64,000 bases of DNA from Candidatus Kerfeldbacteria bacterium (GCA_016182555.1 JACPGJ010000002.1:48040-112039); one strand, 5' to 3'; counted from the first letter of the stretch, positions 7,673 to 48,545 are shown. Notes: a model not told the origin generated them from the letters alone. A program made the numbers and translations.

Positions 7673-7684
7673 TTTGATCTCCTC

Positions 7685-29666: not shown

Positions 29667-30683
29667 ATGTCCTTATCTATAGATTTTCAAGAATATATAG
29701 AAGAGCAGCAGCCAAATAAATTGTTGTTGTTGTACCATTGGGATACCGACGGTTTGGCGTGTGCGGCGTTATTTTTGAATTATTTGGATGTCGCAAGTCC
29801 GAATACTGAAGTGGTGTTGATGCACCCAACAATTAACAATTATTTTTTGCTTCCGCGGGAGTATGCGCAGATTGCCGCGATGAATGTAGATGCCATTCTC
29901 ACGACCGATATTAATTTCCCACCCGATGTGTTTACTCGGTTGGAGCAAATCGTGCAGCCCGTATTTGTGTTTGACCATCATTCGCAAACCGCGGGCATTG
30001 GAAAGCCTGGTGTGCAAAATCCAAATTATCCTGGCTGTTCGATGCTGGTGAATGATTATTTAATGCAGCCGTTGTCTTTGGTCTCCGTGTTGGGTATGGT
30101 GGGTGATCAAGAAGAACGTATCCGAGAGTTCACCGCTTTTTATCCGCAAGTGGAAGAGATGATGAAAGAACATGGATTGTCGTTTGAAGAAATATTACGT
30201 CTGACGAAATTGATTGACACGATGTATATTGTGGGCGACACGGAAGGATTAGAATATGCGATTGCATTGTTGCGCCGTAATCCTATTGATGCGCTGACTG
30301 ACCAACGCTTGTTGAGCGCGGAAAAAGAGATCGCCGCAGAATTAGCGCGTGAATGTGCAAAAGAAATGAAACCGATGGGCGAGCATGTGTTGTACCAGCC
30401 GATTGATTCGCGGATGAGTTTAATTTCCGAAGTTACCCGTGCTCGTGCCCGCGAATTTCCAGAGAGCATTATCATGACCGATCACGTGCGTGGCGATGAT
30501 GCTAGCCTGTATCTTCGGCGCCGCAATGCACCAATTGACTTGGGCTGCGTGGTTGATTTGGCGCGAAAACTCGGTTACAATGCTGGAGGAAAGCCGGAAG
30601 TGGCAGGCGTCGTGTTGCCCGCAAAAGCGCTTGTCGATTTCCGTGCACAAGTGATTCAATTATTAGAACAACTTTATGGATAA
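29667..30683 (+). CDS. DHH-family phosphoesterase (NrnA-like pAp phosphatase/nanoRNase)
   Basis: LLLYHWDTDGLACAA (DHH motif I/II region), VFVFDHH (DHH motif III) and a DHHA1-like C-terminus. Sits between sat and cysC. Confidence 0.65.
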   Translation: MSLSIDFQEYIEEQQPNKLLLLYHWDTDGLACAALFLNYLDVASPNTEVVLMHPTINNYFLLPREYAQIAAMNVDAILTTDINFPPDVFTRLEQIVQPVFVFDHHSQTAGIGKPGVQNPNYPGCSMLVNDYLMQPLSLVSVLGMVGDQEERIREFTAFYPQVEEMMKEHGLSFEEILRLTKLIDTMYIVGDTEGLEYAIALLRRNPIDALTDQRLLSAEKEIAAELARECAKEMKPMGEHVLYQPIDSRMSLISEVTRARAREFPESIIMTDHVRGDDASLYLRRRNAPIDLGCVVDLARKLGYNAGGKPEVAGVVLPAKALVDFRAQVIQLLEQLYG

Positions 30684-33812: not shown

Positions 33813-34418
33813 ATGCAACAAAAAGCAACAAATATTACGTGGCACGATGGCGAGGTAACCAAAACTCACCGCGAAGGTTTGCTGAAACAACAAGGGGTTA
33901 TTTTGTGGTTTACGGGTTTATCCGGTTCAGGGAAATCCACGATTACCGTGGCGTTGGAACAGGCGCTATATCAACATGGCCACGCCAGTTACCGGTTAGA
34001 TGGCGACAATATTAGGCATGGGTTGAATAAAGATTTAGGGTTTTCACCTGAAGACCGGACAGAAAATATCCGTCGGATTGGGGAAGTCGCAAAACTCATG
34101 ATGGACGCTGGTTTAGTAGTGATGACTTCATTTATTTCTCCATACCGCGCAGATCGTGATTTAGCTCGCAGCCTCGTCGCGCCAGGAGAATTTTTGGAAA
34201 TATACGTAAAATGTTCGTTGGAAAAATGTGAAGAGCGTGACCCGAAAGGCTTGTACAAAAAAGCCCGTGCAGGTGAGATTCCAGAATTTACAGGTATTAG
34301 CGCTCCGTATGAAGAACCAGAAGAACCGGAACTGGTGTTGGATACCGCCACGCTGAGTGTGGATGAAGCTGTGCAAACGATTCTTGAATACTTGAAACAG
34401 CATAACTACATTCATTAG
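33813..34418 (+). CDS. cysC: Adenylyl-sulfate kinase
   Basis: [18 protein letters not shown]-loop and ...[34 protein letters not shown], the canonical APS kinase. Confidence 0.9.
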
Positions 34419-34529: not shown

Positions 34530-36245
34530 ATGAAGAAACATTTTTTCAAAATAATTATTATACTCGCAATCTGTATTGGTATTGGTGTGGGTTCGGGTGT
34601 TGTCTATTTTAATGATCACGCATGGGGTGCGTGGGGAGATGATTCGGCGGGGTATATCTATCTTGCTGGTCGCATGTATTCTGGAAAACCATTAATTTAC
34701 ACAGATGACTTAGCGTTGTCTGGTTTCAATTTTTTTGGAGATGAAAAATTGGCACGATGGTTACTGCCTACTCATCATCAATTTATTAACACGCACGGGG
34801 TTGCCGCATCCAAATATCCAGTGGGGCTATCGCTGTTGATGGTGCTTGCTGCAAAAATAATGCATTCCTCTTTTGGTTTTTATTTGTTGAATCCGTTGCT
34901 TGCCGCCGTGAACCTTGCACTCATCTACCTGTTAGCCCTCGTACTCTTTCCAAAATATCGATACCGGCATGCCATTGGCGTGCTTGCGTCATTCTTTCTT
35001 GGTATTTCGCACTTATACTACGACCATGCTCTTGCACAGCCAATGCGTGAAATTCCCTCTATAACGTTTTTATTATTGATGGCCATTCCACTCGTAAGAG
35101 TATTGGATCGTTTTCAAGAAAAACATATTTCAGCAAGAGATCGGTTGTTGAATTATGCGTTGTTGGCGCTTGCCGGTCTTGCCTATGGTATAGCGATTGA
35201 TGTTCGGGAGACGAGTATTATGTTATTTCCCGGAATCGTTCTTGCTGTATTGATGGTGTTGCGAAAACAATGGCGCGCAGTGATCATCAATGGAGCAGTA
35301 TTTATATTCATGATGGCGATTGCCCTCACTCCAACGATTCTCAACTCCATTCATCTCTCGGAGGATAAGGAAGTATTCAAAGCACGCGATAAAAGTTCAG
35401 TGGTGATTTTGTCGAATATCAACCACTTGGATACCATTAGTACCGATAATGTTTTTGACAATGAAGGACGTTTTCGTCCAGGAAAAGGTTCATTGCCGCA
35501 TTATTGGGACATTATGCAACAAGCCTCTCCGGTGCCATATTTTCTGGCATTTGTATTGCTCGGAATTATTTTTCTCTGGCGTATGAACAAGCCCAAGACG
35601 ATATTTTTATTGCTTTGGTGTCTTGGTACGCTCACCATTTTTGCTTTATGGATCAACCCATACTCTCGGTATATTTTACCAATGTTTCCACCACTCATGT
35701 TGTTTGCCAGTTTTGGTATTTGTTCATTTTTTCAAGAGTTTCTTCCTCGTGTTGTTCCAGAGCGGCGTGTCGTCCGTGTGCTGGCGTTTGTGGTCGTTGC
35801 TATTACATTTGGTTATGGGTATCAACCATTATTTGCAGAAGTGAAAGAGAATTTGCATAGCGATGTCTATATATTCAAAGCGATATCCAAAACTGATTTA
35901 GAAACGTTGATCGACTTGGGTGGCCAGTTGAAAACGTATCAGAAACCGGTATTGATGTTTTCCGGTTCGTGGCAATATGGAACGAGTGAAACATTAGAAG
36001 CCCATACGGGTTTGAAAGCTATTCGGTTTCCACTAGAGCAGCGTTTCGATTTTAGTAAAGACGAAGTATATACTTTTTTTAACCAGATGCTCGGAGATGG
36101 ATATACATTGTTCGTTTGGATTGATGCCACGTCATCACCTGAAGCCTTAGATTTTGTGAATCAATATAACGGTGAAGAAATTAAAACACTTCAATTTACT
36201 TTTCAGCCGGATGTTCATATTTATTCTGTTTCTTTGCAACGATAA
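34530..36245 (+). CDS. Polytopic membrane protein, probable GT-C-type glycosyltransferase, uncertain
   Basis: 571 aa with many TM helices. No soluble catalytic domain recognised. Confidence 0.4.
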   Translation: MKKHFFKIIIILAICIGIGVGSGVVYFNDHAWGAWGDDSAGYIYLAGRMYSGKPLIYTDDLALSGFNFFGDEKLARWLLPTHHQFINTHGVAASKYPVGLSLLMVLAAKIMHSSFGFYLLNPLLAAVNLALIYLLALVLFPKYRYRHAIGVLASFFLGISHLYYDHALAQPMREIPSITFLLLMAIPLVRVLDRFQEKHISARDRLLNYALLALAGLAYGIAIDVRETSIMLFPGIVLAVLMVLRKQWRAVIINGAVFIFMMAIALTPTILNSIHLSEDKEVFKARDKSSVVILSNINHLDTISTDNVFDNEGRFRPGKGSLPHYWDIMQQASPVPYFLAFVLLGIIFLWRMNKPKTIFLLLWCLGTLTIFALWINPYSRYILPMFPPLMLFASFGICSFFQEFLPRVVPERRVVRVLAFVVVAITFGYGYQPLFAEVKENLHSDVYIFKAISKTDLETLIDLGGQLKTYQKPVLMFSGSWQYGTSETLEAHTGLKAIRFPLEQRFDFSKDEVYTFFNQMLGDGYTLFVWIDATSSPEALDFVNQYNGEEIKTLQFTFQPDVHIYSVSLQR

Positions 36246-36349: not shown

Positions 36350-37963
36350 TTACAACTTTATCTTTCCGAGAGCCTGATGAATAGATGACTTCTCACTGAT
36401 GAGTTTAGACGAAGGACCTTTCTCTACATCACGTATATATGCTTCTGCAGAGGTTTTGAATACAGATTTCTCTACGTGGCCATCGCAATCAGACGGTACA
36501 GGTAAATTCAACAAATGAAGTAATAGGGGAGTAATATCTTGCATTTTTAATCCTTCCACAGTTTTGTTTTCGGCAAAATCTGGCCCGAGCGCCATGAATA
36601 TCCCAAATTGATCGTGTTTGTTCTGAATTTCCTCTGCAAATAATTTCCCAGATTGAAATTGTCCTACTAACCAATAGTCACCAAGTTCAAAAAAGATATC
36701 TGGTGCTTGGTCTGGTGCATCATTTCCATAGACTTCTTCACGCGTCATAATGCGGGAAATAATTGGCCGGCCAGCATCATCGCGAATGGCACGCATTTTT
36801 TCAATCACCTCTGCACGAAGCGCAGGATATTCTTCTTTTGAAACTGTACCGTCTTTATATACCCATGCTTTGTTGATATACGCGCTGGTGATATAGCTCC
36901 CTTTTGGAAAACACACTTTCGTTTTACTAAAATCAATGCCCACATTCACTTTCAAGTTCACCGGTAAATATCGTTTTACCACTTTATGATAGGTAAATTT
37001 TGCGGCGCGTTCGAGCATAGGGAATTTGCTCAAAAATTCAAACACGCCAGAATTGATATTGATTCGTTTCTTTTGAGCACGGACTTTATCGGCTTCTTTC
37101 GCGCGGCGAGTTGCTGCACCACGAAATTGGTCAGCGTTCGTGTTGGTGGTTAAATATCCTTCCTTTTCTAACCAACGGTTAAAGTAAAATATTTTTTTAA
37201 ATGATTGAAACCCATGGTCGGAAACGATAATCAGGTTCGCGTCTTTTGGAAGGTGTTCCAAAAACCATGCCAGGTGCTCATCTACTTTTTCAAAAACACG
37301 CCGCGCTGATGCTTCTTCTTTTTCTTCTAGCTCGGTATAGGCCAAATGTGAAATCCAATCTGTATGCGAGAAGAGGTAAAAGAAAAAATCCCAGGGTTTT
37401 TTTTCAAATAGCCAACGCACACATGTGGTTTGTTCTTCCAAGTGCTTCAACAAATCTTCAATATATTCCTGCCGGCGTTCTTGCAGGCGCACACTTTCAT
37501 CGGGTGTAAGCCGATAATTTTTAAACGGCGGAAATTCTTCTTTTAGTGATTCAGGGTAAATCCATTTGTCGCCTTGGGTAAGCAAATCGGTAATCGTAAT
37601 ACTGTTCTTTAATTTTGGTGGGTAACTACCCGGCAGGTTCACGAGAATGGTTTTCATACCTTGCTCGTGCAGCATTTCATAAATCGTTTTATCACGAAAG
37701 TCGCTGCTTGTTGGAAATTTCATGTTGCCGAGTGAATCTGTGGGTAGCATGAAATCAAAAATACCGTGCTTACCCGGGTGTTTGCCAGTGGCAAATGTTC
37801 CCCACGATGCGGCGGTCATTGCTGGAATTGTGGATTCCAATTTTCCGCTGACACCCTGTTCCATGATCTTTTTCACCGTGGGCATGTAGCCTTTTTCGGC
37901 AAATGGTTTGAGGAGTTTCCAGGTGGCTCCATCGAGCCCGAGAACAACCGTTTTTTTCTTCAT
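36350..37963 (-). CDS. Alkaline-phosphatase-superfamily protein (NPP/phosphodiesterase-like), paralog 2
   Basis: Start at the internal MKKKTVVLGLDGATWKLL. ...STIPAMTAASWGTFATGKHPGKHGIFDF aligns to the 30676 protein. Confidence 0.6.
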   Translation of the reverse strand: MKKKTVVLGLDGATWKLLKPFAEKGYMPTVKKIMEQGVSGKLESTIPAMTAASWGTFATGKHPGKHGIFDFMLPTDSLGNMKFPTSSDFRDKTIYEMLHEQGMKTILVNLPGSYPPKLKNSITITDLLTQGDKWIYPESLKEEFPPFKNYRLTPDESVRLQERRQEYIEDLLKHLEEQTTCVRWLFEKKPWDFFFYLFSHTDWISHLAYTELEEKEEASARRVFEKVDEHLAWFLEHLPKDANLIIVSDHGFQSFKKIFYFNRWLEKEGYLTTNTNADQFRGAATRRAKEADKVRAQKKRININSGVFEFLSKFPMLERAAKFTYHKVVKRYLPVNLKVNVGIDFSKTKVCFPKGSYITSAYINKAWVYKDGTVSKEEYPALRAEVIEKMRAIRDDAGRPIISRIMTREEVYGNDAPDQAPDIFFELGDYWLVGQFQSGKLFAEEIQNKHDQFGIFMALGPDFAENKTVEGLKMQDITPLLLHLLNLPVPSDCDGHVEKSVFKTSAEAYIRDVEKGPSSKLISEKSSIHQALGKIKL

Positions 37964-38147
37964 AGATAGCGTTTTATTATGGATGAGCTTGAATTGTTGA
38001 GCAATATGAACAATAATAATAGTATTGGAGATTGGCCATTCTGGCAAGCACAGAGCAGAAAGCGGAGGATGCTTTTATTTTCTGTGTTTGCCGGAGGGGG
38101 CTGATTCTTTCTCCTTATTAAAGGGGGGACGAAAGGAAAGGCCATTT

Positions 38148-38678
38148 ATGTCGTCGACACAAGTTTTTAATGCGGCGGTGGAGTGGCTCGAAGCGCGCGA
38201 AGCTCTCTATCGCTCGGCGGTTCTCGCTGGGCAAGAGGGTGAGCTCCATGCCAGCCGGCAAGTCGAGTGGTTTGCCGGGTTGGTGGCGCAGTTTCGTGAT
38301 CTCGAGCTGCTCTGGCTCGAGGCAGGTCTTGATGATAAAGCTGTGCGATATTTGTGCACGGCGTTTCATCAGTCCTGCCGGCCACCCACGCGAAGCTCGG
38401 AAGAGTCGTTGGAGGTACGCACCCGCCGACGCGAGTGCTACTTCCTTCGCCAGGCTCTACGAGCTTCTGGTCTGCGACCGAATGGCAAGCTCCTTGAAAC
38501 CCAGGAGCTTTGCCTACAGCTCGCTGGAGTGGCTGAGCGATTCGCTGCGCGAGCAGGGGGTGCTCGTCAAAACCAACGGGCTGAGGAGTTGTCTCAGCTC
38601 GCTGACCACTTTCGCCGCGAAGCGAGAGAGGTCTATGAGCTCGCAATCATGCGCGGGCTCCTGAGCAAAGCGGCGTAG
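38148..38678 (+). CDS. Hypothetical protein encoded in a short GC-rich islet
   Basis: Start MSSTQVFNAAVEW. Ala/Arg/Leu/Glu-rich and predicted helical. GC visibly higher than the flanks. The opposite-strand ORFs are judged to be artefacts. Confidence 0.35.
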   Translation: MSSTQVFNAAVEWLEAREALYRSAVLAGQEGELHASRQVEWFAGLVAQFRDLELLWLEAGLDDKAVRYLCTAFHQSCRPPTRSSEESLEVRTRRRECYFLRQALRASGLRPNGKLLETQELCLQLAGVAERFAARAGGARQNQRAEELSQLADHFRREAREVYELAIMRGLLSKAA

Positions 38679-38775
38679 GTTTTTTTTCATGGCGCTGCCA
38701 GAGCGCTACTCACCATCCGTTCGTTTTCTGGACATCAATACGCGCCCGCTTCAAAGCGTGTTGATAAAACGAACT

Positions 38776-38815
38776 CCTTCCAGTATACAGTGCATGAGCA
38801 GTGTCTACTGGAAGG
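38776..38815 (-). terminator. Hairpin CCTTCCAGTA-N20-TACTGGAAGG followed by a U-rich tract on the minus strand
   Basis: 10-bp perfect stem directly 3' of the RHH gene 38832-39038. Confidence 0.45.
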
Positions 38816-38831
38816 ATATGTCTGAAAAAAA

Positions 38832-39038
38832 TTAATCTAAATAACCCAAATCTTCCAAGCGTTTTTTTACATCTGCTTCTTGCGCTGCCGTATAGCCCGT
38901 CGCGGTATCGTTTGCTGTTTGTTTTAACACCTCTTCTAAAATGTAGCACACATACTGCTCAACGGATTGAAATTCGCCAGAGGCTTTTACGCGTTCTTCC
39001 AATTGTTTTGCCAACGTTTCCGGTAATGTAATGTTCAT
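38832..39038 (-). CDS. Ribbon-helix-helix (CopG/Arc-like) small protein, paralog B
   Basis: MNITLPETLAKQLEERVKASGEFQSVEQYVCYILEEVL is a classic RHH N-terminus. C-terminal tail shared with 28009-28212. Confidence 0.5.
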   Translation of the reverse strand: MNITLPETLAKQLEERVKASGEFQSVEQYVCYILEEVLKQTANDTATGYTAAQEADVKKRLEDLGYLD

Positions 39039-39200
39039 GGGAGTCTATAATTAGTTCACTTTATTCGTGCAATTATAGTATACATTTTCGTTCTCATCGT
39101 CAACTATTCAGCAACCATTGTTATTTAAAATTGAAAAGTGGACTGCAACCATTGCTTTTTTCATTTATTTCGATATGATGTGTATATTATTTATAACTGT

Positions 39201-40133
39201 ATGGAATTAACTCAACATCGCATTTCATCGTTTGGCGATCTCCTCGATTTATGGAAACAAGGGAGCAAAACCGGCCTACAAAGTATTGAATTTGATTTGA
39301 GCGTTGGGCATCGGTCGGACGCCAGCACTCATCTTGATATCGGTCATCCCTTGGATTTGCTGCAGAGAGAAAAAAGAAACCAAACACCCATTCCCGCAGA
39401 AGAATTTTTTGACCAATTATCAACAGTAGGCATCAATGAAATTGTTATTGATATCAAAGCGCGTGGTTTTAACAAAGCGAAGTTCCAGAATGATGCCGGG
39501 CAACCAATAGCGGATGCAGAGTTTTTTGTTGGAGATCAGGAAAAATTATATCAAGAATTACCCGCGTTGTTGAAAACATATCAAGAGCAAGCACGTGAGA
39601 GGACTGGTAGAGAATCACGTATTGTTATCGCTTCAGTATTTCCAGAATTTTTTCTTCCAGAAGGAGAGGTGGCGGCTCATTCAGCAGCGTTTTTTCAAGA
39701 CTTATTGAAGTTGGGTGTCGCTACACGTTTTTTTGCCAGAACATTTGATGCGAAAGATTCAGAAAAAGATGTGAGTAAAAAAAGAAAAATCGATCCATTT
39801 GCTGAAGCAAACCGTTTAGGAGTTACGCAAATCGGTATCGAATTGCCAAAGCAGAATCTTGGAGAATATTTACGTTGGTTGAAGACATTACCACAGTATG
39901 AGCAGTATAGAGAATTCATTTCATTTTACACTGTTGATGATAAAACAGATTTAACAGAGATTCAAAAAGAGTTTCCCCGTGCAGAGGTTATTACCAATAA
40001 ATCATTTGCGTTAGAAGAAATTTCAAATAACAGTACAGAACAAGAAAAACGCAGAGAGGATGACGCGGTTCGTCAGAAAGAAGTAGCGCCATTCACTGTG
40101 AAAAACCCAGAATGGAAAACAAGATTTAATTAA
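39201..40133 (+). CDS. Hypothetical protein
   Basis: Intact ORF with no assignable motif. Divergent from the RHH gene. Confidence 0.4.
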   Translation: MELTQHRISSFGDLLDLWKQGSKTGLQSIEFDLSVGHRSDASTHLDIGHPLDLLQREKRNQTPIPAEEFFDQLSTVGINEIVIDIKARGFNKAKFQNDAGQPIADAEFFVGDQEKLYQELPALLKTYQEQARERTGRESRIVIASVFPEFFLPEGEVAAHSAAFFQDLLKLGVATRFFARTFDAKDSEKDVSKKRKIDPFAEANRLGVTQIGIELPKQNLGEYLRWLKTLPQYEQYREFISFYTVDDKTDLTEIQKEFPRAEVITNKSFALEEISNNSTEQEKRREDDAVRQKEVAPFTVKNPEWKTRFN

Positions 40134-40141
40134 CTATACGT

Positions 40142-40819
40142 ATGGCTGAAATAAAAACAATTGCAGACGTTATTCCGTTTCAAAAACCGCAAGATTCGAT
40201 TTTTTCGAAATTGATCAATCGGAAATTTTCACGCATCATCACCTTTTATTTGGTGAGAAATGTGAAGGGGATTCACCCCACACATATTAACATTGCTTCA
40301 CTCATTATTAGTCTTGCGGGGTGTGCCATGTTTTGGCACCCAAGTTACTGGGTACGATTCGCCGGTATTTTTGTGTTGCAACTTGGGTTCACGCTGGACT
40401 GCTGCGATGGGGAAATTGCGCGTATTAAAAATGTGGCCAGCCCTTTCGGAGCGTGGTTCGATTCTGTACTAGACCGCTTCAAAGAATTTGCGATGCTCGC
40501 TTCACTCATGGCGTTTTCGTATTTTCACCAACCGTATGGCGTGCATGTACTGGTCGTTGGCTTCCTGGCAATTATTGGTTTGCAACTTGTTTCCTATTTG
40601 CGTGAGGCAAAAAAGAGTTCTTGGCCATCGACGCGCACTGCCGAAGTGGCGATTAGCAAAAATATCTATATTGGAACGGTAGACGTAACCATTTACCTTG
40701 TCTGTTTTGCTGTTTTTCTTAACGCTCAGTATTATATGCTTTGGTTTTTCTTAACGCTCAGTTTACCGATGATTGCTAAGCAACTTCGCTCTGCGTTTCG
40801 TTTAGCTAAAAAATCATAA
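40142..40819 (+). CDS. CDP-alcohol phosphatidyltransferase family protein
   Basis: LDCCDGEIARIKNVASPFGAWFDSVLDR, the D-G-x2-A-R-x8-G-x3-D-x3-D signature. Polytopic. Confidence 0.7.
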   Translation: MAEIKTIADVIPFQKPQDSIFSKLINRKFSRIITFYLVRNVKGIHPTHINIASLIISLAGCAMFWHPSYWVRFAGIFVLQLGFTLDCCDGEIARIKNVASPFGAWFDSVLDRFKEFAMLASLMAFSYFHQPYGVHVLVVGFLAIIGLQLVSYLREAKKSSWPSTRTAEVAISKNIYIGTVDVTIYLVCFAVFLNAQYYMLWFFLTLSLPMIAKQLRSAFRLAKKS

Positions 40820-40830
40820 TATGCATTCCC

Positions 40831-41316
40831 ATGAATGAATATACACATCCAGTGGTGAAAAAATTACAGAATGAATCATATACGCCACAACAAGAGTACT
40901 GTGTGACTCGAGCCTTGCGTACGGTGTTTGCTCCAGAATTACGCCGCTATACTATTCAACACATTCCAAAATATGATAGTTTAAAAGGTCAGTCATTGGA
41001 GTCAATTGACCAAAAAAAATTTGCTGATATTGATTTTGAGATTGCAATTGAGATCCAGACTAATGCTAAAATGAAAGAGCTTTTATGGCGACTATTAGAA
41101 ACGCAAATGAGTGCACCAACAGACGTCGCCATAAAATCAGAAGTCGAATTATTTGCGGAATATATGTATCGGCAATCTGATGCGACAAAACAAAATGAAG
41201 TAATCCAAGCATTTCCTGAATACAAAGAACATATCATTTCTGAATATATGAGGCGTTCTGCTTTGCATAATGCTCAAACAATGCGTGAGCAAAAACGATC
41301 GATTGTTTTTCACTAA
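40831..41316 (+). CDS. Hypothetical protein
   Basis: 161-aa soluble ORF with no motif recognised. Confidence 0.35.
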   Translation: MNEYTHPVVKKLQNESYTPQQEYCVTRALRTVFAPELRRYTIQHIPKYDSLKGQSLESIDQKKFADIDFEIAIEIQTNAKMKELLWRLLETQMSAPTDVAIKSEVELFAEYMYRQSDATKQNEVIQAFPEYKEHIISEYMRRSALHNAQTMREQKRSIVFH

Positions 41317-41322
41317 TAACAA

Positions 41323-42111
41323 TTATTTTTTGTTTTGATTGCTATCGTATTCCATGAACACTTTGTAGTTCAACAGGCCAGAAATAGTGGAAAAGAAGAA
41401 GGCGAGAGCGGCGTAGAGAACAATACCAAAAGCAGCGTGATTTGTGAGCCCAAAAATAGTATAGAGTAATACGCGGTCAGAAAGTTTAAATAGGGAAGAG
41501 TGTTTGAGTGTGCGAAGCAACTGATTTCCTTTATCATTTTTAATAAACATGCGCGGAGTGTCTTTTTTGCCACTCGTTTCGAGTGTGAACATATCGCGGT
41601 TGAGCGCGCAGATATTTCGCAAGAATTGAAAGAAGATGCCGAAGAAAGCAAGGAGCAATACCCACACGAGTTGGTCACCAGAAGCGGTGTATGCACCCCA
41701 AGCGAAGCCGATAAGAATACATCCGTCTTTGATTTTATCTGAATGATAATCAAACCATGCGCCGGCTTGAATTTTTAACCCCATCAAGCGCGCGAGTTGA
41801 CCATCGCAACAATCGAAGATAAATGAGATGTGCAGAATAATGACGCCCCATATCAACGATTGATAATCGCCGCGAGAAAAAAGATACGCGGTGAGAAGCC
41901 CCAGCATCAGCGAACTGCTCGTGAAAAAATTCGGTGTTACACGAGGCAAAAAACGAAACGTAAACCAAACAATTCGATTTGCCACTTGCGCGGAAAAATA
42001 ATACGCCAAAAATCCGTCTTCTTTTTTAATAACATCATGTGGAGCAGTATAGGGTGCGGCGATCGGGCGTTGGTTAGACATACTTCGAGATAAATATATT
42101 ATATTGTTCAA
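41323..42111 (-). CDS. CDP-alcohol phosphatidyltransferase family protein (second copy)
   Basis: FDCCDGQLARLMGLKIQAGAWFDYHSDKIKD signature. Overlaps the 3' end of the G1PDH-like gene. Confidence 0.7.
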   Translation of the reverse strand: MNNIIYLSRSMSNQRPIAAPYTAPHDVIKKEDGFLAYYFSAQVANRIVWFTFRFLPRVTPNFFTSSSLMLGLLTAYLFSRGDYQSLIWGVIILHISFIFDCCDGQLARLMGLKIQAGAWFDYHSDKIKDGCILIGFAWGAYTASGDQLVWVLLLAFFGIFFQFLRNICALNRDMFTLETSGKKDTPRMFIKNDKGNQLLRTLKHSSLFKLSDRVLLYTIFGLTNHAAFGIVLYAALAFFFSTISGLLNYKVFMEYDSNQNKK

Positions 42112-43144
42112 TACAGGCTATTGCTTTTTTTCGATCCAGATTCAGTTGTTCAAAAATGGTGTAGCGTTCCGAACGAGTTTCAGGTGCGCGGAGCAATACT
42201 TCAACCATTTGTTCGTCAGTTAACCCGAGGGCAGTATGCGTTAGTGGTAAATGAACGCTTTTGAAAAAATCAATCAAATGTTCGATAGATTCTCCACGCA
42301 TCATGCCGGTCAATAGCATGCCATACGCTACTTGCAGGCCATGCATAGAAGTTTTTGGATATAACAAATCAATGGCATGTGAAATTTTATGTTCAGAACC
42401 CGAACATGGTCGAGAACTGCCAGCAATATTCATGGCAATGCCAGATAAAATTAACCCATGCACCAGCTTTTGTAAAAATGTTTCTTCTTGTAAATCCATT
42501 TTGCCCCCGCGGCAAGTTTCATAAATGAGTTGTGCCGCAGAGTAGGCGATAGACGCTGCAAAATCATCCATCGATTCTTTTCCAGCAGCGTAGGCTAAAC
42601 GCCAATCCGCAATGGCAGACATGTTTGAGATTAAATCGCCAACACCCGAACGAATATTTTCTATTGGCGCGCTGGTAAGCATTTTTGTGTCTACTAAAAT
42701 ACCAACGGGCATATTTACTGGAATGCTTTCCGTGAGCCCTTCTTCATTGATTAACACAGCGACGGGAGATGAAATACCATCATTTGAAGGAGAAGTTGGG
42801 ATAGAGATGTAGTTCACGCCAGCTTTCGTTGCAATATATTTCCCCAAATCCAGCACCCGACCGCCACCAATATTGACCAATACATCATTCCGTTTTTCGC
42901 GAATTTCACGAATAATTTCTTTTGCACGAGCAAGAGAGTTTTCATTTGTCAGAATTGTTGCTGGGTCGTTCAGCGCATGCACGACATCGTTTCCACCCAT
43001 TTCTAAAATATGTTTTTCAGAAATAATTAACGGTTTTTGAAAATGGATATGCTGTTCATCTAAAATTTTTCGAATATTTCTGAGACAGCCGGTTTCTATT
43101 TTAATAAACAAAGGAATTTGAATGTTGCGTAGAATGACTGACAT
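42074..43144 (-). CDS. Glycerol-1-phosphate dehydrogenase-like enzyme (Fe-ADH_2/AraM/EgsA family)
   Basis: NIGGGRVLDLGKYIATKAG (GGGxxxDxxK) and SIPTSPSNDGISSPVAVL (the PT-x-S-x-DG-x-SP motif of G1PDH/glycerol dehydrogenase-type enzymes). Confidence 0.6.
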   Translation of the reverse strand: MSVILRNIQIPLFIKIETGCLRNIRKILDEQHIHFQKPLIISEKHILEMGGNDVVHALNDPATILTNENSLARAKEIIREIREKRNDVLVNIGGGRVLDLGKYIATKAGVNYISIPTSPSNDGISSPVAVLINEEGLTESIPVNMPVGILVDTKMLTSAPIENIRSGVGDLISNMSAIADWRLAYAAGKESMDDFAASIAYSAAQLIYETCRGGKMDLQEETFLQKLVHGLILSGIAMNIAGSSRPCSGSEHKISHAIDLLYPKTSMHGLQVAYGMLLTGMMRGESIEHLIDFFKSVHLPLTHTALGLTDEQMVEVLLRAPETRSERYTIFEQLNLDRKKAIACIEQYNIFISKYV

Positions 43145-43145
43145 A

Positions 43146-43880
43146 TTATTGTCGTATCTGTTTAATCAGTTCTTTCGCCGCTTCCAAATCTTCGTGTGTG
43201 TCAATTTCCATGACGGGCAATCCTTCGGTGGATATTTTTTTAATTTGTGTTCCGTAGTCGTCAATCATTTGCTGAATAGCATCTTCATAGTACACTAACG
43301 GGTCTTCACCCATCTTTTTTTCCGCGGCCGCCAGTAGCGCATCTTTTGTGGGTTTTGAAAAACGGAGAATACCGACATATTCGCCATGTGCTGTTGCTGG
43401 GTCGAGTGTTTTGTGAATGCGTTGAATGTATCCGTTCTCATCAGCAAGGACTTTCATTTCTTCTTCGCCGAGCGTTTTTACATCATCTACCATCATCGCA
43501 TTTGCTTCCGGTGAAGCCAATAATTTTTTCAAAATATCGGTATGAAAAATAGTATCGGAATTGATCCAAACAAAATCGTCATCGAACAAATGTTCCGCGG
43601 AAGGGATGCCAATGATATTTCCGGTTGTGGCATATTCGGGAATAAAATGCAGATCAATACTCACGTCATTGGCATCGGCATACCGTGAGGTAAATTCTTC
43701 AACGAATTCATGCCCGTGACCCGTGAGAATATCAAAGTGCTCCATGCCAGCATGCCGTGCATTATCTAAAATATGCTCTAAAATGATTTTTTCATCTACA
43801 GGAAGTAATGTCTTTGGAATAGTATCAGTTTTTGGACGAAGTCGTTTGGAAACTCCACCGGCTAAAATAATACAGCGCAT
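43146..43880 (-). CDS. Sugar/polyol-phosphate nucleotidyltransferase (NTP_transferase family)
   Basis: Start MRCIILAGGVSKRLRPKTDTIPKTLLPV, a G-x-G-x-R-L signature. The ORF-track N-terminal extension runs through the palindromic repeat and is rejected. Confidence 0.6.
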   Translation of the reverse strand: MRCIILAGGVSKRLRPKTDTIPKTLLPVDEKIILEHILDNARHAGMEHFDILTGHGHEFVEEFTSRYADANDVSIDLHFIPEYATTGNIIGIPSAEHLFDDDFVWINSDTIFHTDILKKLLASPEANAMMVDDVKTLGEEEMKVLADENGYIQRIHKTLDPATAHGEYVGILRFSKPTKDALLAAAEKKMGEDPLVYYEDAIQQMIDDYGTQIKKISTEGLPVMEIDTHEDLEAAKELIKQIRQ

Positions 43881-43920
43881 AAAATATATTAATGGAAAAG
43901 TATTTGAGAGCCAGAGCGGC

Positions 43921-43972
43921 AATTCCGGAGAGAGCACGTATTTGCGAAGCAAAACGAAGCTCTCGAGGAATT
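43921..43972. repeat. Palindromic intergenic repeat, copy D
   Basis: aattccggagagagcacgtatttgcgaagcaaaacgaagctctcgaggaatt. Its flanks cggc / gtcgctacgg partly mirror copy A. Confidence 0.7.
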
Positions 43973-43993
43973 GTCGCTACGGCTCTCTACAGC

Positions 43994-45460
43994 TTATAAA
44001 TCATTTGTATTCTTTTCGATTTTTCTTGTGAGAATCTGTTTCATAATAATTTTATCTTCCTCACTAAAGAATCGGAATATCCATAAGGCGAATAGATACA
44101 CAAAAGCTCCAAGAATAACCAAAACTATAACAGGAAGTGTTCCTTTTGACAAGTATAAAACACTGAACATCACGACGGTTGCACCGATAATGGGCAATAG
44201 TGATGCGAGGTCGCGGAGATTCGATTGACGCAAGAAATGATTCGAGAGATAAATAGACGAAACCGTAATCGTGATTTCCGTAATGAGCGTAGCAATCGCT
44301 GCACCAGTAGCTCCATAATTTCGCACCAAAAAAATATCGAGCACGACATTTAAAACCAACGTTGCCAATTGAATGCCGGCACGCAGCCCCTGATGATCGG
44401 TTGTGGTTAACGAATTTCCATGACCAATGCCCACAAAGCGAATAGCCAGAAACCACCCGAAGACTTGTAACACTGGAACGGCCGCCAAAAATTCCGGTTT
44501 ATGGTAGACCAGTGGAATAATCGCTGGTGCCAAAAACCATAATCCAATACCCGCAGGAATACCAATGGCAGCAAGATATCGATTCGTTAAATTTTGTGCA
44601 CGGGTATATTTTTCCATATTGTTCTTGCTGTAGCGATACATAATTGGCATCGTCACCTGGAATAACATGAGCGGCACAAATAAGAACATCGACACTAACT
44701 TCGCTGCCGCAGAATAAATACCCACTTCTCCTTGATCACGAATAATCGAAATAATAATTTGATCGATTTGAAAATAGAGCATGAAGAACATATTGTACAA
44801 GGTGAACACATACGCTTGTTTGATCATGGGTAGAATCAATTTCGTGTCGAATTGTGGCTTCACTAGTTTTCGTGTATAGGCAAATAACAGCACGATACAA
44901 AATAGATCAACCCATAAACTAGTGTGCGCAATACCAAGCAAACCGCGGTCTGGATTTTTCACCAACCAAATAATGCCAAAAGTAAAGAAACAAAAGAGCG
45001 TGCCGTTGATTACTTCCACCACGCCGATAATTTTTAGGTTCAGTGCTACACGAAAGACGCCACGCATCACTTTTCGGAATTCAAATATGAGGTTTGATGC
45101 ACCAAGAAGGGCCATGAGCACAATGGTGGTATGCGAATAACCAATGCCAACTCCAATACCAATAATGATAAAAAAGAGTATCACGGATAACACCGTTTCA
45201 ACTAACAATGTATTCCCAAAATAAATCGCCATCTTTTTTTCATCCCGTGCTCCTTCACGCACAATTAAGGTGCTCATTCCTAAATCATTGAGCGCCAAAA
45301 ACATATTTGCCCACGCTGTTGCGGTTTCAAACATGCCGTAGCGTTCTTTGCCCAGATAGTTGGCGGCGTAAATTAACGCAATCGCGGTCAGAAATCGAAA
45401 TGCGGTTCGCGCAATCAACAAGTACGATACATTTTTAAATACCGATTTGGCAGTGCTCAT
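43994..45460 (-). CDS. Wzx-like polysaccharide flippase (MOP superfamily, Polysacc_synt family)
   Basis: 488 aa with ~12-14 TM helices. N-terminal ...NVSYLLIARTAFRFLTAIALIYAANYLGKERYG is typical of Wzx/RfbX proteins. Confidence 0.65.
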   Translation of the reverse strand: MSTAKSVFKNVSYLLIARTAFRFLTAIALIYAANYLGKERYGMFETATAWANMFLALNDLGMSTLIVREGARDEKKMAIYFGNTLLVETVLSVILFFIIIGIGVGIGYSHTTIVLMALLGASNLIFEFRKVMRGVFRVALNLKIIGVVEVINGTLFCFFTFGIIWLVKNPDRGLLGIAHTSLWVDLFCIVLLFAYTRKLVKPQFDTKLILPMIKQAYVFTLYNMFFMLYFQIDQIIISIIRDQGEVGIYSAAAKLVSMFLFVPLMLFQVTMPIMYRYSKNNMEKYTRAQNLTNRYLAAIGIPAGIGLWFLAPAIIPLVYHKPEFLAAVPVLQVFGWFLAIRFVGIGHGNSLTTTDHQGLRAGIQLATLVLNVVLDIFLVRNYGATGAAIATLITEITITVSSIYLSNHFLRQSNLRDLASLLPIIGATVVMFSVLYLSKGTLPVIVLVILGAFVYLFALWIFRFFSEEDKIIMKQILTRKIEKNTNDL

Positions 45461-45463
45461 ATA

Positions 45464-46531
45464 TTACAGACGTTCAAATAATTTTTTATATTGTGCCGCA
45501 ACATCTTCCCAGCGAGAATGTTCACGGGTGTATGCGGCTGCCGTTTTTCCAAATGTCTGGCGTTGCGCCGGATGGTTGAGCCATGTCAATACCGCATTGG
45601 TGTATGCTTCTGTATCGCCTGGAGTAATCAATATACCGTTGTGTTGATCGGCAATAGCAGAGGGAATTCCGTCAATACGCGAAGCAATGACCGGCAAACC
45701 GTATGCGGCGGCTTCAATGGCAACAAAACCGAATCCTTCCGCATCACCATCAACATTGATATTCGGCATAACAAATAGATCAGCGGCAGAGTAGAGGAAC
45801 CGTAATTCTTCATCAGTCACTTTGCCGAGCAGACGGACATGGTGCGCTAGATTCAACTGTTGAATCAATGATTCAATCTGTTCTTTTTCTGGTCCAGTGG
45901 AAACAATGAGGTATATTGGTAGTGGCTGTGGAAGCTTTGCAAATACGTGCTCAATGAACCATGCCACGCCTTTGCGGCGCACAAGCCGGCCAACAGTGAG
46001 GAGCCATGGTTTTTCTGTAGGGAGAGAAAAACGTGCTGCCAATTTTTTTCGTGCTTGCGTTCTATCAATGACTGGTGGTTGAACCACGCCGTGTGTAATA
46101 ATAGAAATTTTTTCTGCGGGAATACCATTTTTCTTGAGAAGATCTGCGGTGAAATCACTCACAGCGACAAAATGATTGATAGAGCGGAGTGATCGGCGGA
46201 TCAGCCATTGATAGCCGGGGATACTGTTGAACGTAAGTTCCAGAGCATGCACCGTTACCACGATCGGTTTTTGCATGAACCATTTCAATATGATCGCAAT
46301 GGGACCCAACACTAAATCTCCAAGATGAATCAGGTCAACGCGACGAGATAGAAACAACGCGCGCACGCAGAGCAGAGGAGCTGCCCAAAGAATATCCAAT
46401 TTCCGCTGTCCATAATGGATGATTGTTTTGGGGCCAGCATAATTTTCTGTGAGCTCCCAACTAAATGTTTCCATACCACCTTTTTGTGGTGGAAATTTTC
46501 GTGTCAAAAAAAGAATACGCATATGATTCAT
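45464..46531 (-). CDS. Glycosyltransferase family 4
   Basis: Start at MNHMRILFLTRKFPPQKGGME. C-terminal EGFGFVAIEAAAYGLPVIASRIDGIPS. The 46532-47134 part of the ORF-track call overlaps the + strand gene and is rejected. Confidence 0.75.
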   Translation of the reverse strand: MNHMRILFLTRKFPPQKGGMETFSWELTENYAGPKTIIHYGQRKLDILWAAPLLCVRALFLSRRVDLIHLGDLVLGPIAIILKWFMQKPIVVTVHALELTFNSIPGYQWLIRRSLRSINHFVAVSDFTADLLKKNGIPAEKISIITHGVVQPPVIDRTQARKKLAARFSLPTEKPWLLTVGRLVRRKGVAWFIEHVFAKLPQPLPIYLIVSTGPEKEQIESLIQQLNLAHHVRLLGKVTDEELRFLYSAADLFVMPNINVDGDAEGFGFVAIEAAAYGLPVIASRIDGIPSAIADQHNGILITPGDTEAYTNAVLTWLNHPAQRQTFGKTAAAYTREHSRWEDVAAQYKKLFERL

Positions 46532-46577
46532 TCTATTGTAGCAGACGGGCAGAAATAATTGAATAATTGAACAAGAA

Positions 46578-48545
46578 ATGATAGTATTTGTCAATATGAA
46601 AGAGCTTGTAAATTTTATGAGCCTCCCGTGGTGGACGTTGCAATGGATATCCGCCATTGTGCTTCTTTTTGCCATGTATCGCGCTACACGTTCGCAGTCA
46701 GAACGTTTTCCGTTTTTTACTGCACTCGCTTTTTTCCCTGGGCTGACATTGTATGAAGCGTTGATATTATGGCACGAACCCCTGTTGCAGAGCCAACATT
46801 TTCTGTTGACGGTTGCATGGGCAGCGTGTATTGCACAAATAGTATTTTCCGCAAAACCAGAGTGGCGTTTTTCAGTAAAGCAGTGGCGCTGGTTCGCCGC
46901 CGTTTTGCTGTGTATAACGGCCGTGCTGGCTGGAGTTATTCGCTTCTTCCCTACGCTTTTTCTGACATCCAGCCTGTTCGTATTATTCATCGTATTGTGG
47001 ATGCTCATCCTTCGTTTTGTTCCGTTGAATATGTTAGAACATGTTGCCGGCGAGACGCCAAAGCCGTTGCGACAGCAGTGGTATTGGGTTATCGCTATTG
47101 GCATTATCATTCTATGTGCGGGGTGGGTGCGCATCGCCAGTTTGAATGCATTTCCATTTCAAAACGATGAATTTTTTCACCTGGAAACCGCGAAAGGATA
47201 TGTGGAAACTGGTCGCTACGTTCAGTGGAATTTTTTAACGCAGCAGCCACAAGAGGTGTATACACGTGCCTGGCCGTATACGTGGCAGGTTGCGCAGAGT
47301 GCAAAGTTTTTTGGTTTTTCAGAATGGTCGCTACGGTTGCCAGCATTGGTGTGGGGGATGCTATTTCTGATCCTTGTTCCTTTCGTCGCTTATTCTTGGA
47401 CACGGCGTGCTTCGGTTGCTTTCACGGCCACACTCATTGCTGCTTTTGACCCCAGCCTCATTTGGTCTTCAAGTTATACTCGCATGTACTCCATGTTTTG
47501 GACATTGTCGTTATTCACTGTGTGGTGTTTTTGGAAAGCCGTGCATGAAAAAGAAATATCGGTAAAATCTCAGCACTCTGCGCAGCGTTGGGTATGGTTA
47601 TTCGTTTCGGGTGTAGCTGCCTGCGCCAGTGCGTTTATTCATGAAGCCGGGTTATTGTTATTTGCTGGCATGGGTGTAACCATAGTCGTATTGTGGCTGC
47701 GTGAACCAAAGAATAGGTATTATCGTGTATTAACTTTTTGTTTCTGTGCCGGCGTTGTGGCAGTATTCACGGCTCACGTGATTCACCCTTTTCTTCCATT
47801 GGGATTTATTACCCTGCGTCAACATCCAGCATTTAGCTATATGGATTATTTATTTGGAGAATTTTTATTACCTTGGTTTGCATTACTCATTACTGTGGCG
47901 TTTCTTTTTTTCACTCGCGCAAAACGATTACCATATTGGGTAATCATCGCTTCTAGCTTTGGCATTTCTCTCACAGGGTATTTTGTGTATTTTGCTAACC
48001 GGTATGCGGTACGTAAATATAGTTTCTTTTTCATCATGCCCGTATTCATCGTATTTGCCTATGCATGGGAGCAATATATGCAGTATTTGTTTCCTCAATC
48101 AGCCAAGCCGTGGCTGCGTCGAACGCTGAGTATTCTGCTATTCGTGTGGTTGGCTATTCCATTATCCTTTCCTGGCATTCCGGAGTCTTTCTTGTTTACG
48201 ACGGCACGTGCTGATAAATCATATACAGAGATTGAGTATTATAATTATCCGGTGGCCTATGCATATTTGGAAGAGCACGCAGAACCGAATGCAACAGTGT
48301 TGATGCTTTCTCCTCAAACTTACTATCTTCACCGAACAGATTTACATATTCAACGTTTGCCACTCGAACGTGCGCTCACGGTTGAAGAACTAAAATCGAT
48401 GCTGGCTGCTTCACACAGTGGCTGGATGGTGTTACCAAAATACAAACAATATCATCTTAACCCAGCGGTAAAAAATTACATTCAGAAACATCTACGTTTA
48501 GTGAATGATGATCCCAATACGAATATGTTGATCTATCAATGGTAG
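46578..48545 (+). CDS. GT-C-fold membrane glycosyltransferase, PMT/ArnT-like (PMT_2 family), paralog 1
   Basis: Polytopic. DEFFHLETAKGY periplasmic-loop acidic motif and the RLPALVWGMLFLILV helix are typical of ArnT/PMT-type GT39/GT83 enzymes. Confidence 0.55.
   Translation: MIVFVNMKELVNFMSLPWWTLQWISAIVLLFAMYRATRSQSERFPFFTALAFFPGLTLYEALILWHEPLLQSQHFLLTVAWAACIAQIVFSAKPEWRFSVKQWRWFAAVLLCITAVLAGVIRFFPTLFLTSSLFVLFIVLWMLILRFVPLNMLEHVAGETPKPLRQQWYWVIAIGIIILCAGWVRIASLNAFPFQNDEFFHLETAKGYVETGRYVQWNFLTQQPQEVYTRAWPYTWQVAQSAKFFGFSEWSLRLPALVWGMLFLILVPFVAYSWTRRASVAFTATLIAAFDPSLIWSSSYTRMYSMFWTLSLFTVWCFWKAVHEKEISVKSQHSAQRWVWLFVSGVAACASAFIHEAGLLLFAGMGVTIVVLWLREPKNRYYRVLTFCFCAGVVAVFTAHVIHPFLPLGFITLRQHPAFSYMDYLFGEFLLPWFALLITVAFLFFTRAKRLPYWVIIASSFGISLTGYFVYFANRYAVRKYSFFFIMPVFIVFAYAWEQYMQYLFPQSAKPWLRRTLSILLFVWLAIPLSFPGIPESFLFTTARADKSYTEIEYYNYPVAYAYLEEHAEPNATVLMLSPQTYYLHRTDLHIQRLPLERALTVEELKSMLAASHSGWMVLPKYKQYHLNPAVKNYIQKHLRLVNDDPNTNMLIYQW

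Follow-up and report, generated by a model that had tools for sequence, protein, structure and literature searches.

The stretch of DNA analyzed here (the window) is 64,000 nucleotides in length and comes from a metagenome-assembled genome of Candidatus Kerfeldbacteria, a member of the Patescibacteria. At positions 40142–46531 it carries an operon-like cluster in which a GT4 glycosyltransferase and a Wzx flippase are joined to a nucleoside triphosphate (NTP)-transferase, a glycerol-1-phosphate dehydrogenase (G1PDH)-like enzyme, and two cytidine diphosphate (CDP)-alcohol phosphotransferases, called A and B below. An earlier note had pointed to this combination as one suited to making a polyol phosphate, activating it with cytidine triphosphate (CTP), transferring the phospho-alcohol, and flipping the product. 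We describe the gene content of the cluster, its intact catalytic motifs, the family and fold relationships of its proteins, and its linkage across phyla. The cluster is rather likely to be a supply-and-transfer module for CDP-activated glycerol phosphate, feeding a pathway for an envelope glycoconjugate.

Genes and enzymes of the cluster

Genes and families were confirmed by listing open reading frames (ORFs) and then searching Pfam and NCBIfam profiles. All seven ORFs named in the earlier note were found at the coordinates it gave or within a few codons of them, and their family assignments hold. Five lie in a tight, partly overlapping run on the minus strand from 46531 down to 41323, and a second CDP-alcohol phosphotransferase (B), which is intact and has its full motif, converges on this run together with a hypothetical gene.

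45464–46531, minus strand: GT4 glycosyltransferase, first of the five-gene run (Glycos_transf_1, 123 bits; Glyco_transf_4, 57 bits; Pfam)
43994–45460, minus strand: Wzx/Polysacc_synt flippase of the lipid-linked oligosaccharide type (PF01943, 82.9 bits; cut-off, 28.2)
43146–43952 (likely start 43880), minus strand: NTP-transferase, presumed CTP:glycerol-1-phosphate cytidylyltransferase (PF00483 and PF12804, ~39 bits)
42074–43144, minus strand: G1PDH-like (EgsA/AraM-like) Fe-ADH_2 dehydrogenase (PF13685, 106.5 bits; NF002022, 278.8 bits)
41323–42111 (likely start 42081), minus strand: CDP-alcohol phosphotransferase A (PF01066, 47.8 bits; cut-off, 22)
40142–40819, plus strand: CDP-alcohol phosphotransferase B (PF01066, 47.4 bits; cut-off, 22)
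40831–41316, plus strand: 161-amino acid hypothetical protein (no Pfam or NCBIfam match)

The GT4 gene starts at ATG 46531, since no other start is compatible with the divergent gene at 46578. The longest ORF for the NTP-transferase begins at TTG 43952; ATG 43880, which yields a protein of 244 amino acids as in the relatives, is the likely true start. Transferase A likely starts at ATG 42081, the start called on the public contig. The GT4 and Wzx genes are separated by 3 nt, the Wzx and NTP-transferase genes by 41 or 113 nt according to the start chosen, and the NTP-transferase and dehydrogenase genes by 1 nt, and the dehydrogenase and transferase A genes overlap by 8 nt. Scanning 38600–47000 for promoters and terminators gave the same counts as in shuffled sequence and is therefore uninformative for operon boundaries. 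No matches were returned by an Rfam gathering scan or a tRNA scan of the whole window.

The dehydrogenase scored 278.8 bits over its full length on the NCBIfam G1PDH model NF002022, as compared with 89.8 bits on GldA, 45.6 bits on AroB, and 29 bits on the AroB-related cyclase. Among proteins of solved structure, it matched the G1PDHs of M. jannaschii (143 bits) and P. calidifontis (133 bits) better than GldA (~65 bits) or 3-dehydroquinate synthase (DHQS, ~24 bits). Its top match was 3CE9 (155 bits), a Clostridium structural-genomics protein labeled a glycerol dehydrogenase by its depositors. The readings of this protein as GldA, DHQS, or a sugar-phosphate cyclase are rejected by these profile and solved-structure scores. 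The three residues D170, H252, and H268, which we take to be metal ligands by analogy to GldA and G1PDH structures, are invariant in the window enzyme and 28 relatives. An 83-sequence alignment, composed of homologs from the loci fetched for this work, has the motifs GGGxxxDxxK, SxDGxxSPxA, GxGD, DWxL, SRPxSGxEHxxSHAxD, HG, and RxxRYT common to this enzyme and archaeal EgsA. The assignment in the earlier note of a G1PDH-like enzyme, as opposed to GldA, DHQS, or a cyclase of the 2-deoxy-scyllo-inosose synthase type, is borne out by the scores and by the retained EgsA signature. By sequence, the enzyme is a divergent member of the bacterial G1PDH clan, previously noted in the phylogenetic literature (PMC6431249), and its presumed substrate is dihydroxyacetone phosphate. 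It is 100% identical to an NCBI protein from a Kerfeldbacteria metagenome-assembled genome, a match that supplied the taxonomy of the window.

The NTP-transferase is a PF00483-superfamily protein. Among solved structures, its closest relatives are PntC (6PD1, a phosphonate cytidylyltransferase; 66.7 bits) and then LicC (1JYK, a phosphocholine cytidylyltransferase; 36 bits), and it scored 43 bits on the IPCT half of the NCBIfam IPCT/DIPPS model. Its grouping, which the earlier note had singled out for checking, is thus nearest to the cytidylyltransferases of small phospho-compounds, and the protein is not a TagD-type enzyme. Use of CTP is suggested by its constant partners, which belong to a family using only CDP-linked donors.

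Transferases A and B both carry the complete DxxDGxxAR(x8)GxxxDxxxD signature, as seen in the motifs DCCDGQLARLMGLKIQAGAWFDYHSD and DCCDGEIARIKNVASPFGAWFDSVLD. Their scores are low on the models of conventional phospholipid synthases: 22.9 bits (A) and 24.7 bits (B) on PgsA (cut-off, 109), and 16.3 bits (A) and 27.9 bits (B) on PssA (cut-off, 107); both are also far under the cut-off of the NCBIfam ClsA model. Transferases B and A, in that order, scored 56 and 42 bits on PIPS (cut-off, 170), 76 and 51 bits on AIPS (cut-off, 180), and 88 and 44 bits on DIPPS (cut-off, 580). The nearest relative of solved structure is for both Af2299 (43.8 bits for A and 68 bits for B), and the second nearest is the mycobacterial PIP synthase for A and DIPPS for B. 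An AlphaFold model of B, built from a 44-sequence alignment (pLDDT 89.6), has an Af2299-like helical-bundle architecture, in keeping with the six-transmembrane fold of the Af2299/DIPPS/PIPS class. In fold, the model matches Af2299 (TM-score 0.76, E 2e-8), IPCT-DIPPS (0.72), and PIPS (0.65–0.77), and matches CPT1 (0.45) and PgsA and PSS (≤0.47) poorly. The possibility that A and B are ordinary PgsA/PssA phospholipid synthases, which would have spoken against the earlier note, is ruled out by the model scores and for B also by the fold. Af2299 and DIPPS are the two structurally characterized members of the family with soluble donors (CDP-glycerol, which Af2299 binds, and CDP-inositol) and a small hydrophilic donor pocket in place of a lipid groove; six-transmembrane CDP-alcohol enzymes have been associated with soluble acceptors (PMC4634129).

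Transferase B has ~76 close clusters (45–74% identity), after which scores fall from 201 to 86 bits, and to judge from these it is part of a tight subfamily confined to Patescibacteria. Transferase A belongs to a second conserved Patescibacteria subfamily, always located after the dehydrogenase, and grouped loosely with the active actinobacterial enzymes in a neighbor-joining tree. The deep nodes of this tree and of that for the dehydrogenase are unresolved, and the trees served only to define subfamilies, not ancestry. As for the first two genes of the run, the best NCBIfam matches of the GT4 enzyme are BshA (99 bits) and MshA (91 bits), both under cut-off, and the Wzx protein has ~12 hydrophobic segments.

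Linkage in other genomes

A scan with one genome per species yielded 80 loci, which were searched by tblastn with the window proteins; further loci were fetched separately. Of 76 bacterial loci, 66 have the NTP-transferase gene within 400 bp of the dehydrogenase gene and 58 have a CDP-alcohol transferase gene within 3.5 kb of it, counts that are inflated by many Streptomyces species and represent only ~6–7 independent lineages. Relatives in which the genes are linked, a point that the earlier note had set as a check, occur in Patescibacteria, Streptomyces, Streptosporangiales, Thermoactinomycetaceae, and Thermincolia. In the archaeal loci the dehydrogenase stands alone in six of seven, and the only one with an adjacent NTP-transferase gene is from a Nitrosopumilales metagenome-assembled genome (L020).

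The Patescibacteria loci (L002, L003, L082–L084, and L086; dehydrogenases 44–69% identical) have an invariant Wzx/NTP-transferase/dehydrogenase/transferase A arrangement, with a gene of the alkaline phosphatase (AP) superfamily nearby and B paired with a GT-C-like membrane protein of ~570 amino acids. The Wzx gene is directly upstream of the NTP-transferase gene in every Patescibacteria relative examined for this (L002, L082, L083, L084, and L086). The glycosyltransferase slot upstream of Wzx is variable, being occupied by a GT4 gene in L002 and L082 and by a GT2 gene in L083 and L084. Recurrence of this order, together with the occurrence of the dehydrogenase/NTP-transferase/CDP-alcohol transferase trio in unrelated phyla, indicates that the arrangement is not due to chance.

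In Streptomyces, the order is a transferase-DUF5941 fusion, NTP-transferase, dehydrogenase, second transferase, GT2, and a TagG/TagH-like ABC exporter, and the module adjoins squalene-synthase-like genes. The trio is present in Streptosporangiales. Marininema (Thermoactinomycetaceae) has a seven-gene run composed of GT2, transferase, NTP-transferase, dehydrogenase, ABC permease, ABC ATPase, and transferase. The Thermincolia locus (L085), fetched separately, has Wzy, two GT4 genes, a flippase, NTP-transferase, dehydrogenase, and transferase, with genes for a pyruvyl transferase, an SLH protein, and an LCP ligase close by; the gene in the Wzx position is of the MurJ/Wzx type. The trio also occurs in uncultured lineages (L006, L007, and L087), and dehydrogenase/NTP-transferase pairs without a CDP-alcohol transferase occur in Sarcina and Bacilli. 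The neighbors of the module are always export or glycan genes, that is, Wzx, Wzy, LCP, TagGH-like ABC transporters, and glycosyltransferases.

In the modules of Actinobacteria and Thermoactinomycetaceae, the second CDP-alcohol transferase paralog falls into a separate clade, in which the final Asp of the signature is missing (DxxDGxxAR...GxxLD followed by RVG or TLI). These paralogs are located at 11040–11819 in L030, 11037–11804 in L023, 10986–11795 in L034, 8422–9195 in L013, and 8440–9201 in L081. The paralog may be a noncatalytic partner of the active enzyme. Both paralogs of Patescibacteria retain the final Asp. The active Streptomyces transferase carries a C-terminal DUF5941 fusion (323 bits; 7600–9279 in L030 and 6639–8198 in L034), and the term DUF5941 occurs in no paper of the literature library searched.

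In a 2026 survey of Streptomyces synteny, these genes are given as orphan clusters 'associated with teichoic acid biosynthesis', with no function assigned (PMC13118837). No characterization of the module was found in the literature searched, in which a search on terms such as 'CDP-1-glycerol' was swamped by papers on the 'Candidate Phyla Radiation'.

Accessory genes and the surrounding glycan island

Three further genes lie next to or near transferase B.

39201–40133, plus strand: 310-amino acid near-orphan protein, 8 nt upstream of transferase B
36350–37963, minus strand: cytoplasmic AP-superfamily (NPP/PhnA-like 'Phosphodiest') protein (PF01663, 137.6 bits)
34530–36245, plus strand: 571-amino acid polytopic membrane protein, weakly PMT_2/GT-C-like (PMT_2, 21 bits, under cut-off)

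The AP-superfamily protein has no transmembrane segment and has remote matches to NPP and PhnA structures. Its gene comes directly after transferase A in L082, L083, and L084 and is within the same cluster in L002 and L086. Variant modules lack the CDP-alcohol transferase: an NTP-transferase/dehydrogenase/AP-protein trio occurs in L020 and in an Actinomycetota metagenome-assembled genome (L067), and a dehydrogenase/AP-protein pair in another (L022). These variants suggest that the AP-superfamily protein may itself act on activated glycerol phosphate. An ortholog of the 571-amino acid protein, 563–585 amino acids in length, is found immediately upstream of B on the same strand in L082, L083, L084, and L086.

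The slot between A and B is variable. It is occupied by the 161-amino acid gene in the window, by the AP-superfamily gene in L082–L084, and by two RimK-like ATP-grasp genes in L003, another Kerfeldbacteria genome; this ATP-grasp pair (1559–3786) could decorate the same product with an amino acid. The 161-amino acid protein has no transmembrane segment and no tblastn match in any related locus, and is probably not part of the conserved system. For the 310-amino acid protein, no match was found in Pfam, NCBIfam, or sequences in the PDB, and only two homologs exist among 5.8 billion proteins, neither near a CDP-alcohol transferase. The three known sequences all have H6-R7, E30, D32, and H49. The model of this protein has a pLDDT of only 71, and its best fold matches are the TIM barrels of glycerophosphodiesterase (GDPD) and spider phospholipase D (PLD), with a TM-score of ~0.46–0.5 and E ~2e-6. 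We tentatively consider it a divergent GDPD-like (glycerophosphodiesterase/PLD) TIM barrel that is accessory in this genome only. Neither the 161- nor the 310-amino acid gene was retained as a core part, since they do not occur in related loci and the homologs of the latter are unlinked to the module.

The module is enclosed in an envelope-glycan island of ~42 kb (11985–54146). Its glycosyltransferases are at least six of the GT4 family (one of 1236 amino acids, fused to surface Ig-like domains), two of the GT2 family (one of them AglJ/Dpm-like), and four GT-C proteins resembling PMT/PMT_2. Also present are Wzy_C, GtrA, an epimerase, UDP-glucose dehydrogenase, a flippase-like LPG_synthase_TM protein, and an ABC-2 permease that lacks a neighboring ATPase. 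Beside the module are genes for synthesis of 3'-phosphoadenosine 5'-phosphosulfate (PAPS), namely ATP sulfurylase (28335–29501) and adenosine 5'-phosphosulfate kinase (33813–34418), along with a DHH phosphoesterase (29667–30683) and a second cytoplasmic AP-superfamily 'Phosphodiest' protein (30676–32073) in addition to that at 36350–37963. The window and every Patescibacteria relative examined for it (L082, L083, L084, and L086) have this PAPS/DHH/AP-superfamily set beside the module, with the two interleaved in L086. No canonical sulfotransferase family was seen beside the module in the window or these relatives. Sulfation of the envelope product is one possible reading; another is an unrecognized role for the AP-superfamily proteins.

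Other parts of the window are distinguished by composition or gene content. Positions 38100–38700 form a 600-nt island of 57–60% GC in a genome of ~40% GC, with an ORF of 176–217 amino acids on the plus strand that has no family match. This segment has no Rfam match even at E≤1, and both of its strands are predicted to fold with unusual stability (z of −4.6 and −6.1); a foreign gene and a structured RNA are both conceivable. Positions 4000–8000 have 57–59% GC and ORFs that overlap on both strands, among them a 492-amino acid ORF (6194–7672) with five putative metal-binding repeats of the MopE type (185 bits) and a 321-amino acid ORF (4891–5856) with no family match. A HepT-like RNase/nucleotidyltransferase (MNT) toxin-antitoxin pair (2201–3095, minus strand) and two Bro-N domain proteins (8697–9647 and 10435–11286, plus strand) are genes of the mobile-element type and are located upstream of the glycan island.

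A candidate route through sn-glycerol-1-phosphate

For the cluster we infer a route whose enzyme activities, nucleotide, stereochemistry, and acceptor would be as follows. The G1PDH-like enzyme, as a member of its family, would reduce dihydroxyacetone phosphate (DHAP) with NAD(P)H to sn-glycerol-1-phosphate (G1P). The LicC/PntC/IPCT-like NTP-transferase would combine sn-G1P with CTP to form CDP-(sn-1)-glycerol, and the membrane-embedded transferases A and B would release cytidine monophosphate and link phosphoglycerol to a hydroxyl by a phosphodiester bond. The acceptor is expected at the cytoplasmic face of the membrane and would most likely be a lipid-linked oligosaccharide or growing polymer produced by the neighboring GT4/GT2 enzymes. 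Wzx would flip the decorated lipid-linked unit outward; in Streptomyces and Thermoactinomycetaceae, a TagGH-like ABC exporter takes its place. Since an already phosphorylated alcohol results from the reduction of DHAP, the route needs no kinase, which fits the absence of one from the conserved core. The core logic proposed in the earlier note, from DHAP reduction through CTP activation and phospho-alcohol transfer to flipping, is supported by the family scores and the linkage, as a set of predicted activities.

Three kinds of product had been proposed for the cluster. A decorated glycan or polymer is favored here by the neighboring genes, among them those for Wzy, LCP, SLH, and pyruvylation, those for TagGH-like exporters, and that for a variable glycosyltransferase ahead of an invariant flippase. 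A lipid head group is still to be considered, while a cytoplasmic compatible solute is spoken against by the constant embedding of the module in export and glycan genes.

Several observations weigh against this route. No NCBIfam model claims any module protein, and none of these proteins reaches a curated equivalog cut-off. The dehydrogenase, at 278.8 bits, is under the NF002022 equivalog cut-off of 413 bits, as are those of the Streptomyces (243 bits) and Marininema (276 bits) modules, and its substrate could therefore differ. The bacterial clan as a whole diverges from the archaeal model. The specificity for CTP is deduced from the partner enzymes only, and the independent lineages are few, as noted above. 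An initiating phosphoglycosyl-transferase was not found among the ~45 window proteins scanned with profiles, which leaves the lipid-linked acceptor undefined and makes it the weakest part of the model. The association of the six-transmembrane form with soluble acceptors fits a hydrophilic glycan terminus, and fits a small soluble acceptor equally well. Lastly, the conserved cytoplasmic AP-superfamily protein, which may be a phosphatase or phosphodiesterase for the pathway, is unexplained by the model.

Of the alternatives, the one that survives best, while unlikely, is a Kennedy-type route. CDP-(sn-1)-glycerol would be used in it to modify diacylglycerol or a lipid alcohol such as polyprenol, yielding either phosphatidylglycerol (PG) with its natural sn-1' head group or a polyprenyl-phosphoglycerol donor, which would be flipped and then serve GT-C-like partners on the outside. 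This would suit a lipid-scavenging candidate-phylum bacterium and is consistent with the constant pairing of B with a GT-C-like polytopic protein, as well as with the missing phosphoglycosyl-transferase. The bacterial CDP-choline route pairs a LicC-like transferase with a CDP-alcohol phosphotransferase, and the module follows the same logic, although in that route the alcohol is choline and the acceptor diacylglycerol. The head group of PG has sn-1 stereochemistry (PMC8262930), and a route that activates the head group would thus need G1P, the presumed product of the dehydrogenase, and not glycerol-3-phosphate (G3P). However, family members with lipid acceptors, such as CPT1, have extra transmembrane helices, and CPT1 is a poor match to the model of B (TM-score 0.45), whereas the six-transmembrane form is linked to soluble acceptors (PMC4634129). 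In Streptomyces, moreover, PG is made by the conventional route, but the module is retained there alongside a polymer-type ABC exporter and GT2, and in Thermincolia the module is located inside Wzy/LCP wall-polymer clusters.

That the module handles a different alcohol is doubtful. This could be glycerol-2-phosphate, as in the pneumococcal Gtp1-Gtp2-Gtp3 route to CDP-2-glycerol, or another small polyol phosphate, with the G1PDH-like enzyme acting on another ketone. The scores below curated cut-offs for every module protein leave room for this, as do the dehydrogenase/NTP-transferase pairs without a CDP-alcohol transferase in Sarcina and Bacilli. Gtp1 is probably an Fe-ADH-type reductase and Gtp2 an NTP-transferase. 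The pneumococcal glycerol-2-phosphate loci (serotypes 15 and 23), ordered wzx-wchX-gtp1-gtp2-gtp3, are similar to the module in the logic of their neighborhood, as compared by gene descriptions: a capsule locus of the Wzx/Wzy kind holds genes for a flippase, a phosphoglycerol transferase, a reductase, and a nucleotidyl-transferase (PMC5581491; PMC1391919). But the pneumococcal route has a third gene, gtp3, for a glycerol-2-phosphotransferase, with no counterpart in the core of the module, and yields glycerol-2-phosphate, for which a third enzyme must phosphorylate glycerol; the conserved core includes no candidate kinase or phosphotransferase. In addition, the residues of archaeal G1PDH, including SRPxSG and RxxRYT, are all kept, and G1PDH is by far the best profile match.

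A compatible solute of the diglycerol-phosphate, glycerophosphoinositol, or di-inositol-phosphate kind is highly improbable as the product. CDP-glycerol and a polyol phosphate would give a phosphorylated diester, to be dephosphorylated by the AP-superfamily protein. The nearest characterized transferases (DIPPS, PIPS, and AIPS) do use a polyol phosphate as acceptor and depend on a phosphatase acting afterward, and a cytoplasmic AP-superfamily gene is conserved beside transferase A. The MIPS, IPCT, and DIPPS enzymes for di-myo-inositol phosphate in Archaeoglobus and Thermococcales also share with the module the same three-step logic: a central metabolite is converted to a polyol phosphate, a PF00483-type enzyme activates this with CTP, and a six-transmembrane enzyme with a soluble CDP-alcohol donor transfers it. 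Unlike in that pathway, the polyol of the module would come from a G1PDH-like enzyme instead of MIPS, the NTP-transferase gene is separate and unfused (a weak N-terminal NTP_transf_3 signal of 17.8 bits occurs in one actinobacterial transferase homolog only), there are two transferases, with scores far under the DIPPS, AIPS, and PIPS cut-offs, and the context is one of glycan export rather than osmolyte synthesis. The module never occurs by itself, and its surroundings are always genes for flippases, ABC exporters, Wzy, LCP, and glycosyltransferases; that each module has two transferases also argues against a solute, and no MIPS gene was found in the window or the related loci scanned. Such solutes are known in (hyper)thermophiles, whereas the hosts of the module are mesophilic groundwater and soil lineages.

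Least probable of all is an archaeal-type ether lipid with G1P as its backbone, as for Bacillus AraM/PcrB or the mixed membranes of the FCB group: although G1PDH sets the stereochemistry of archaeal lipids and its Firmicutes and Actinobacteria homologs have been discussed in that light (PMC6431249), this reading is rejected because no prenyltransferase (GGGPS/PcrB or DGGGPS/UbiA-type), nor CarS, was found among the window proteins or module neighbors scanned, the constant partner is a soluble-substrate NTP-transferase that would be superfluous for that pathway, and the archaeal loci themselves mostly have the dehydrogenase alone. AraM of Bacillus subtilis, which makes sn-G1P, resembles the dehydrogenase in being a bacterial protein of the G1PDH family (PMC6431249; PMC8262930). 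It differs in context, as AraM is encoded in an arabinose operon and feeds a prenyl-ether lipid via PcrB, whereas the partners in the module are the NTP-transferase and CDP-alcohol phosphotransferases.

The preferred route, through CDP-activated glycerol phosphate to an envelope glycoconjugate, is closest in purpose to that for wall teichoic acids and capsules (GpsA/GlpK, then TagD/Gct, then TagB/TagF, with export by TagGH or Wzx). Both would use CDP-activated glycerol phosphate for an exported, lipid-linked envelope polymer, and the Streptomyces and Marininema modules carry TagG/TagH-like ABC genes. However, every enzyme family in the module differs: a G1PDH-like enzyme stands in place of G3P supply, a PF00483 enzyme in place of the TagD-type PF01467, and integral-membrane CDP-alcohol phosphotransferases in place of the peripheral TagB/TagF (PF04464), and the predicted stereochemistry is sn-1 instead of sn-3. 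No TagD-type PF01467 or TagB/F-type PF04464 protein was found among the window proteins scanned or in the annotated neighborhoods of relatives. A 2021 paper on capsule polymerases considered CDP-1-glycerol to be likely absent from bacteria, with all known bacterial glycerol-1-phosphate moieties coming from other donors (PMC8262930). A broader form of the proposal, speculative but not far-fetched, is that the module constitutes a widespread bacterial CDP-sn-1-glycerol route. The membrane transferases might then be primers or polymerases that build poly(sn-glycerol-1-phosphate) or a phosphoglycerol-glycan at the cytoplasmic face of the membrane for export, providing an LtaS-independent route of the lipoteichoic acid type in Streptomyces and other actinomycetes and a teichoic-like polymer in candidate-phylum bacteria.

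The module is coherent, conserved, and distributed across phyla, and its interpretation, which rests entirely on inference, makes a specific prediction that can be tested. Glycerol phosphate of the bacterial envelope is thought to come from two routes, CDP-sn-3-glycerol (for wall teichoic acids and capsules) or PG (for lipoteichoic acid, rhamnose polysaccharides, and osmoregulated periplasmic glucans). If the proposal is true, there would be a third, through sn-G1P and CDP-sn-1-glycerol, with enzymes of the CDP-alcohol phosphotransferase family acting as phosphotransferases for glycans or polymers. The bacterial G1PDH homologs would gain a function unrelated to archaeal-type lipids, which bears on arguments about the 'lipid divide' (PMC6431249). 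Actinomycetes make lipoteichoic acid without an LtaS ortholog by an unknown route (PMC3196553), for which the module would be a testable candidate. As Streptomyces and Marininema are cultivable, the hypothesis can be directly tested there. The enzymes would also offer a means of making enantiopure CDP-1-glycerol, and the Patescibacteria, whose envelopes are almost unknown, would have an anionic surface polymer.

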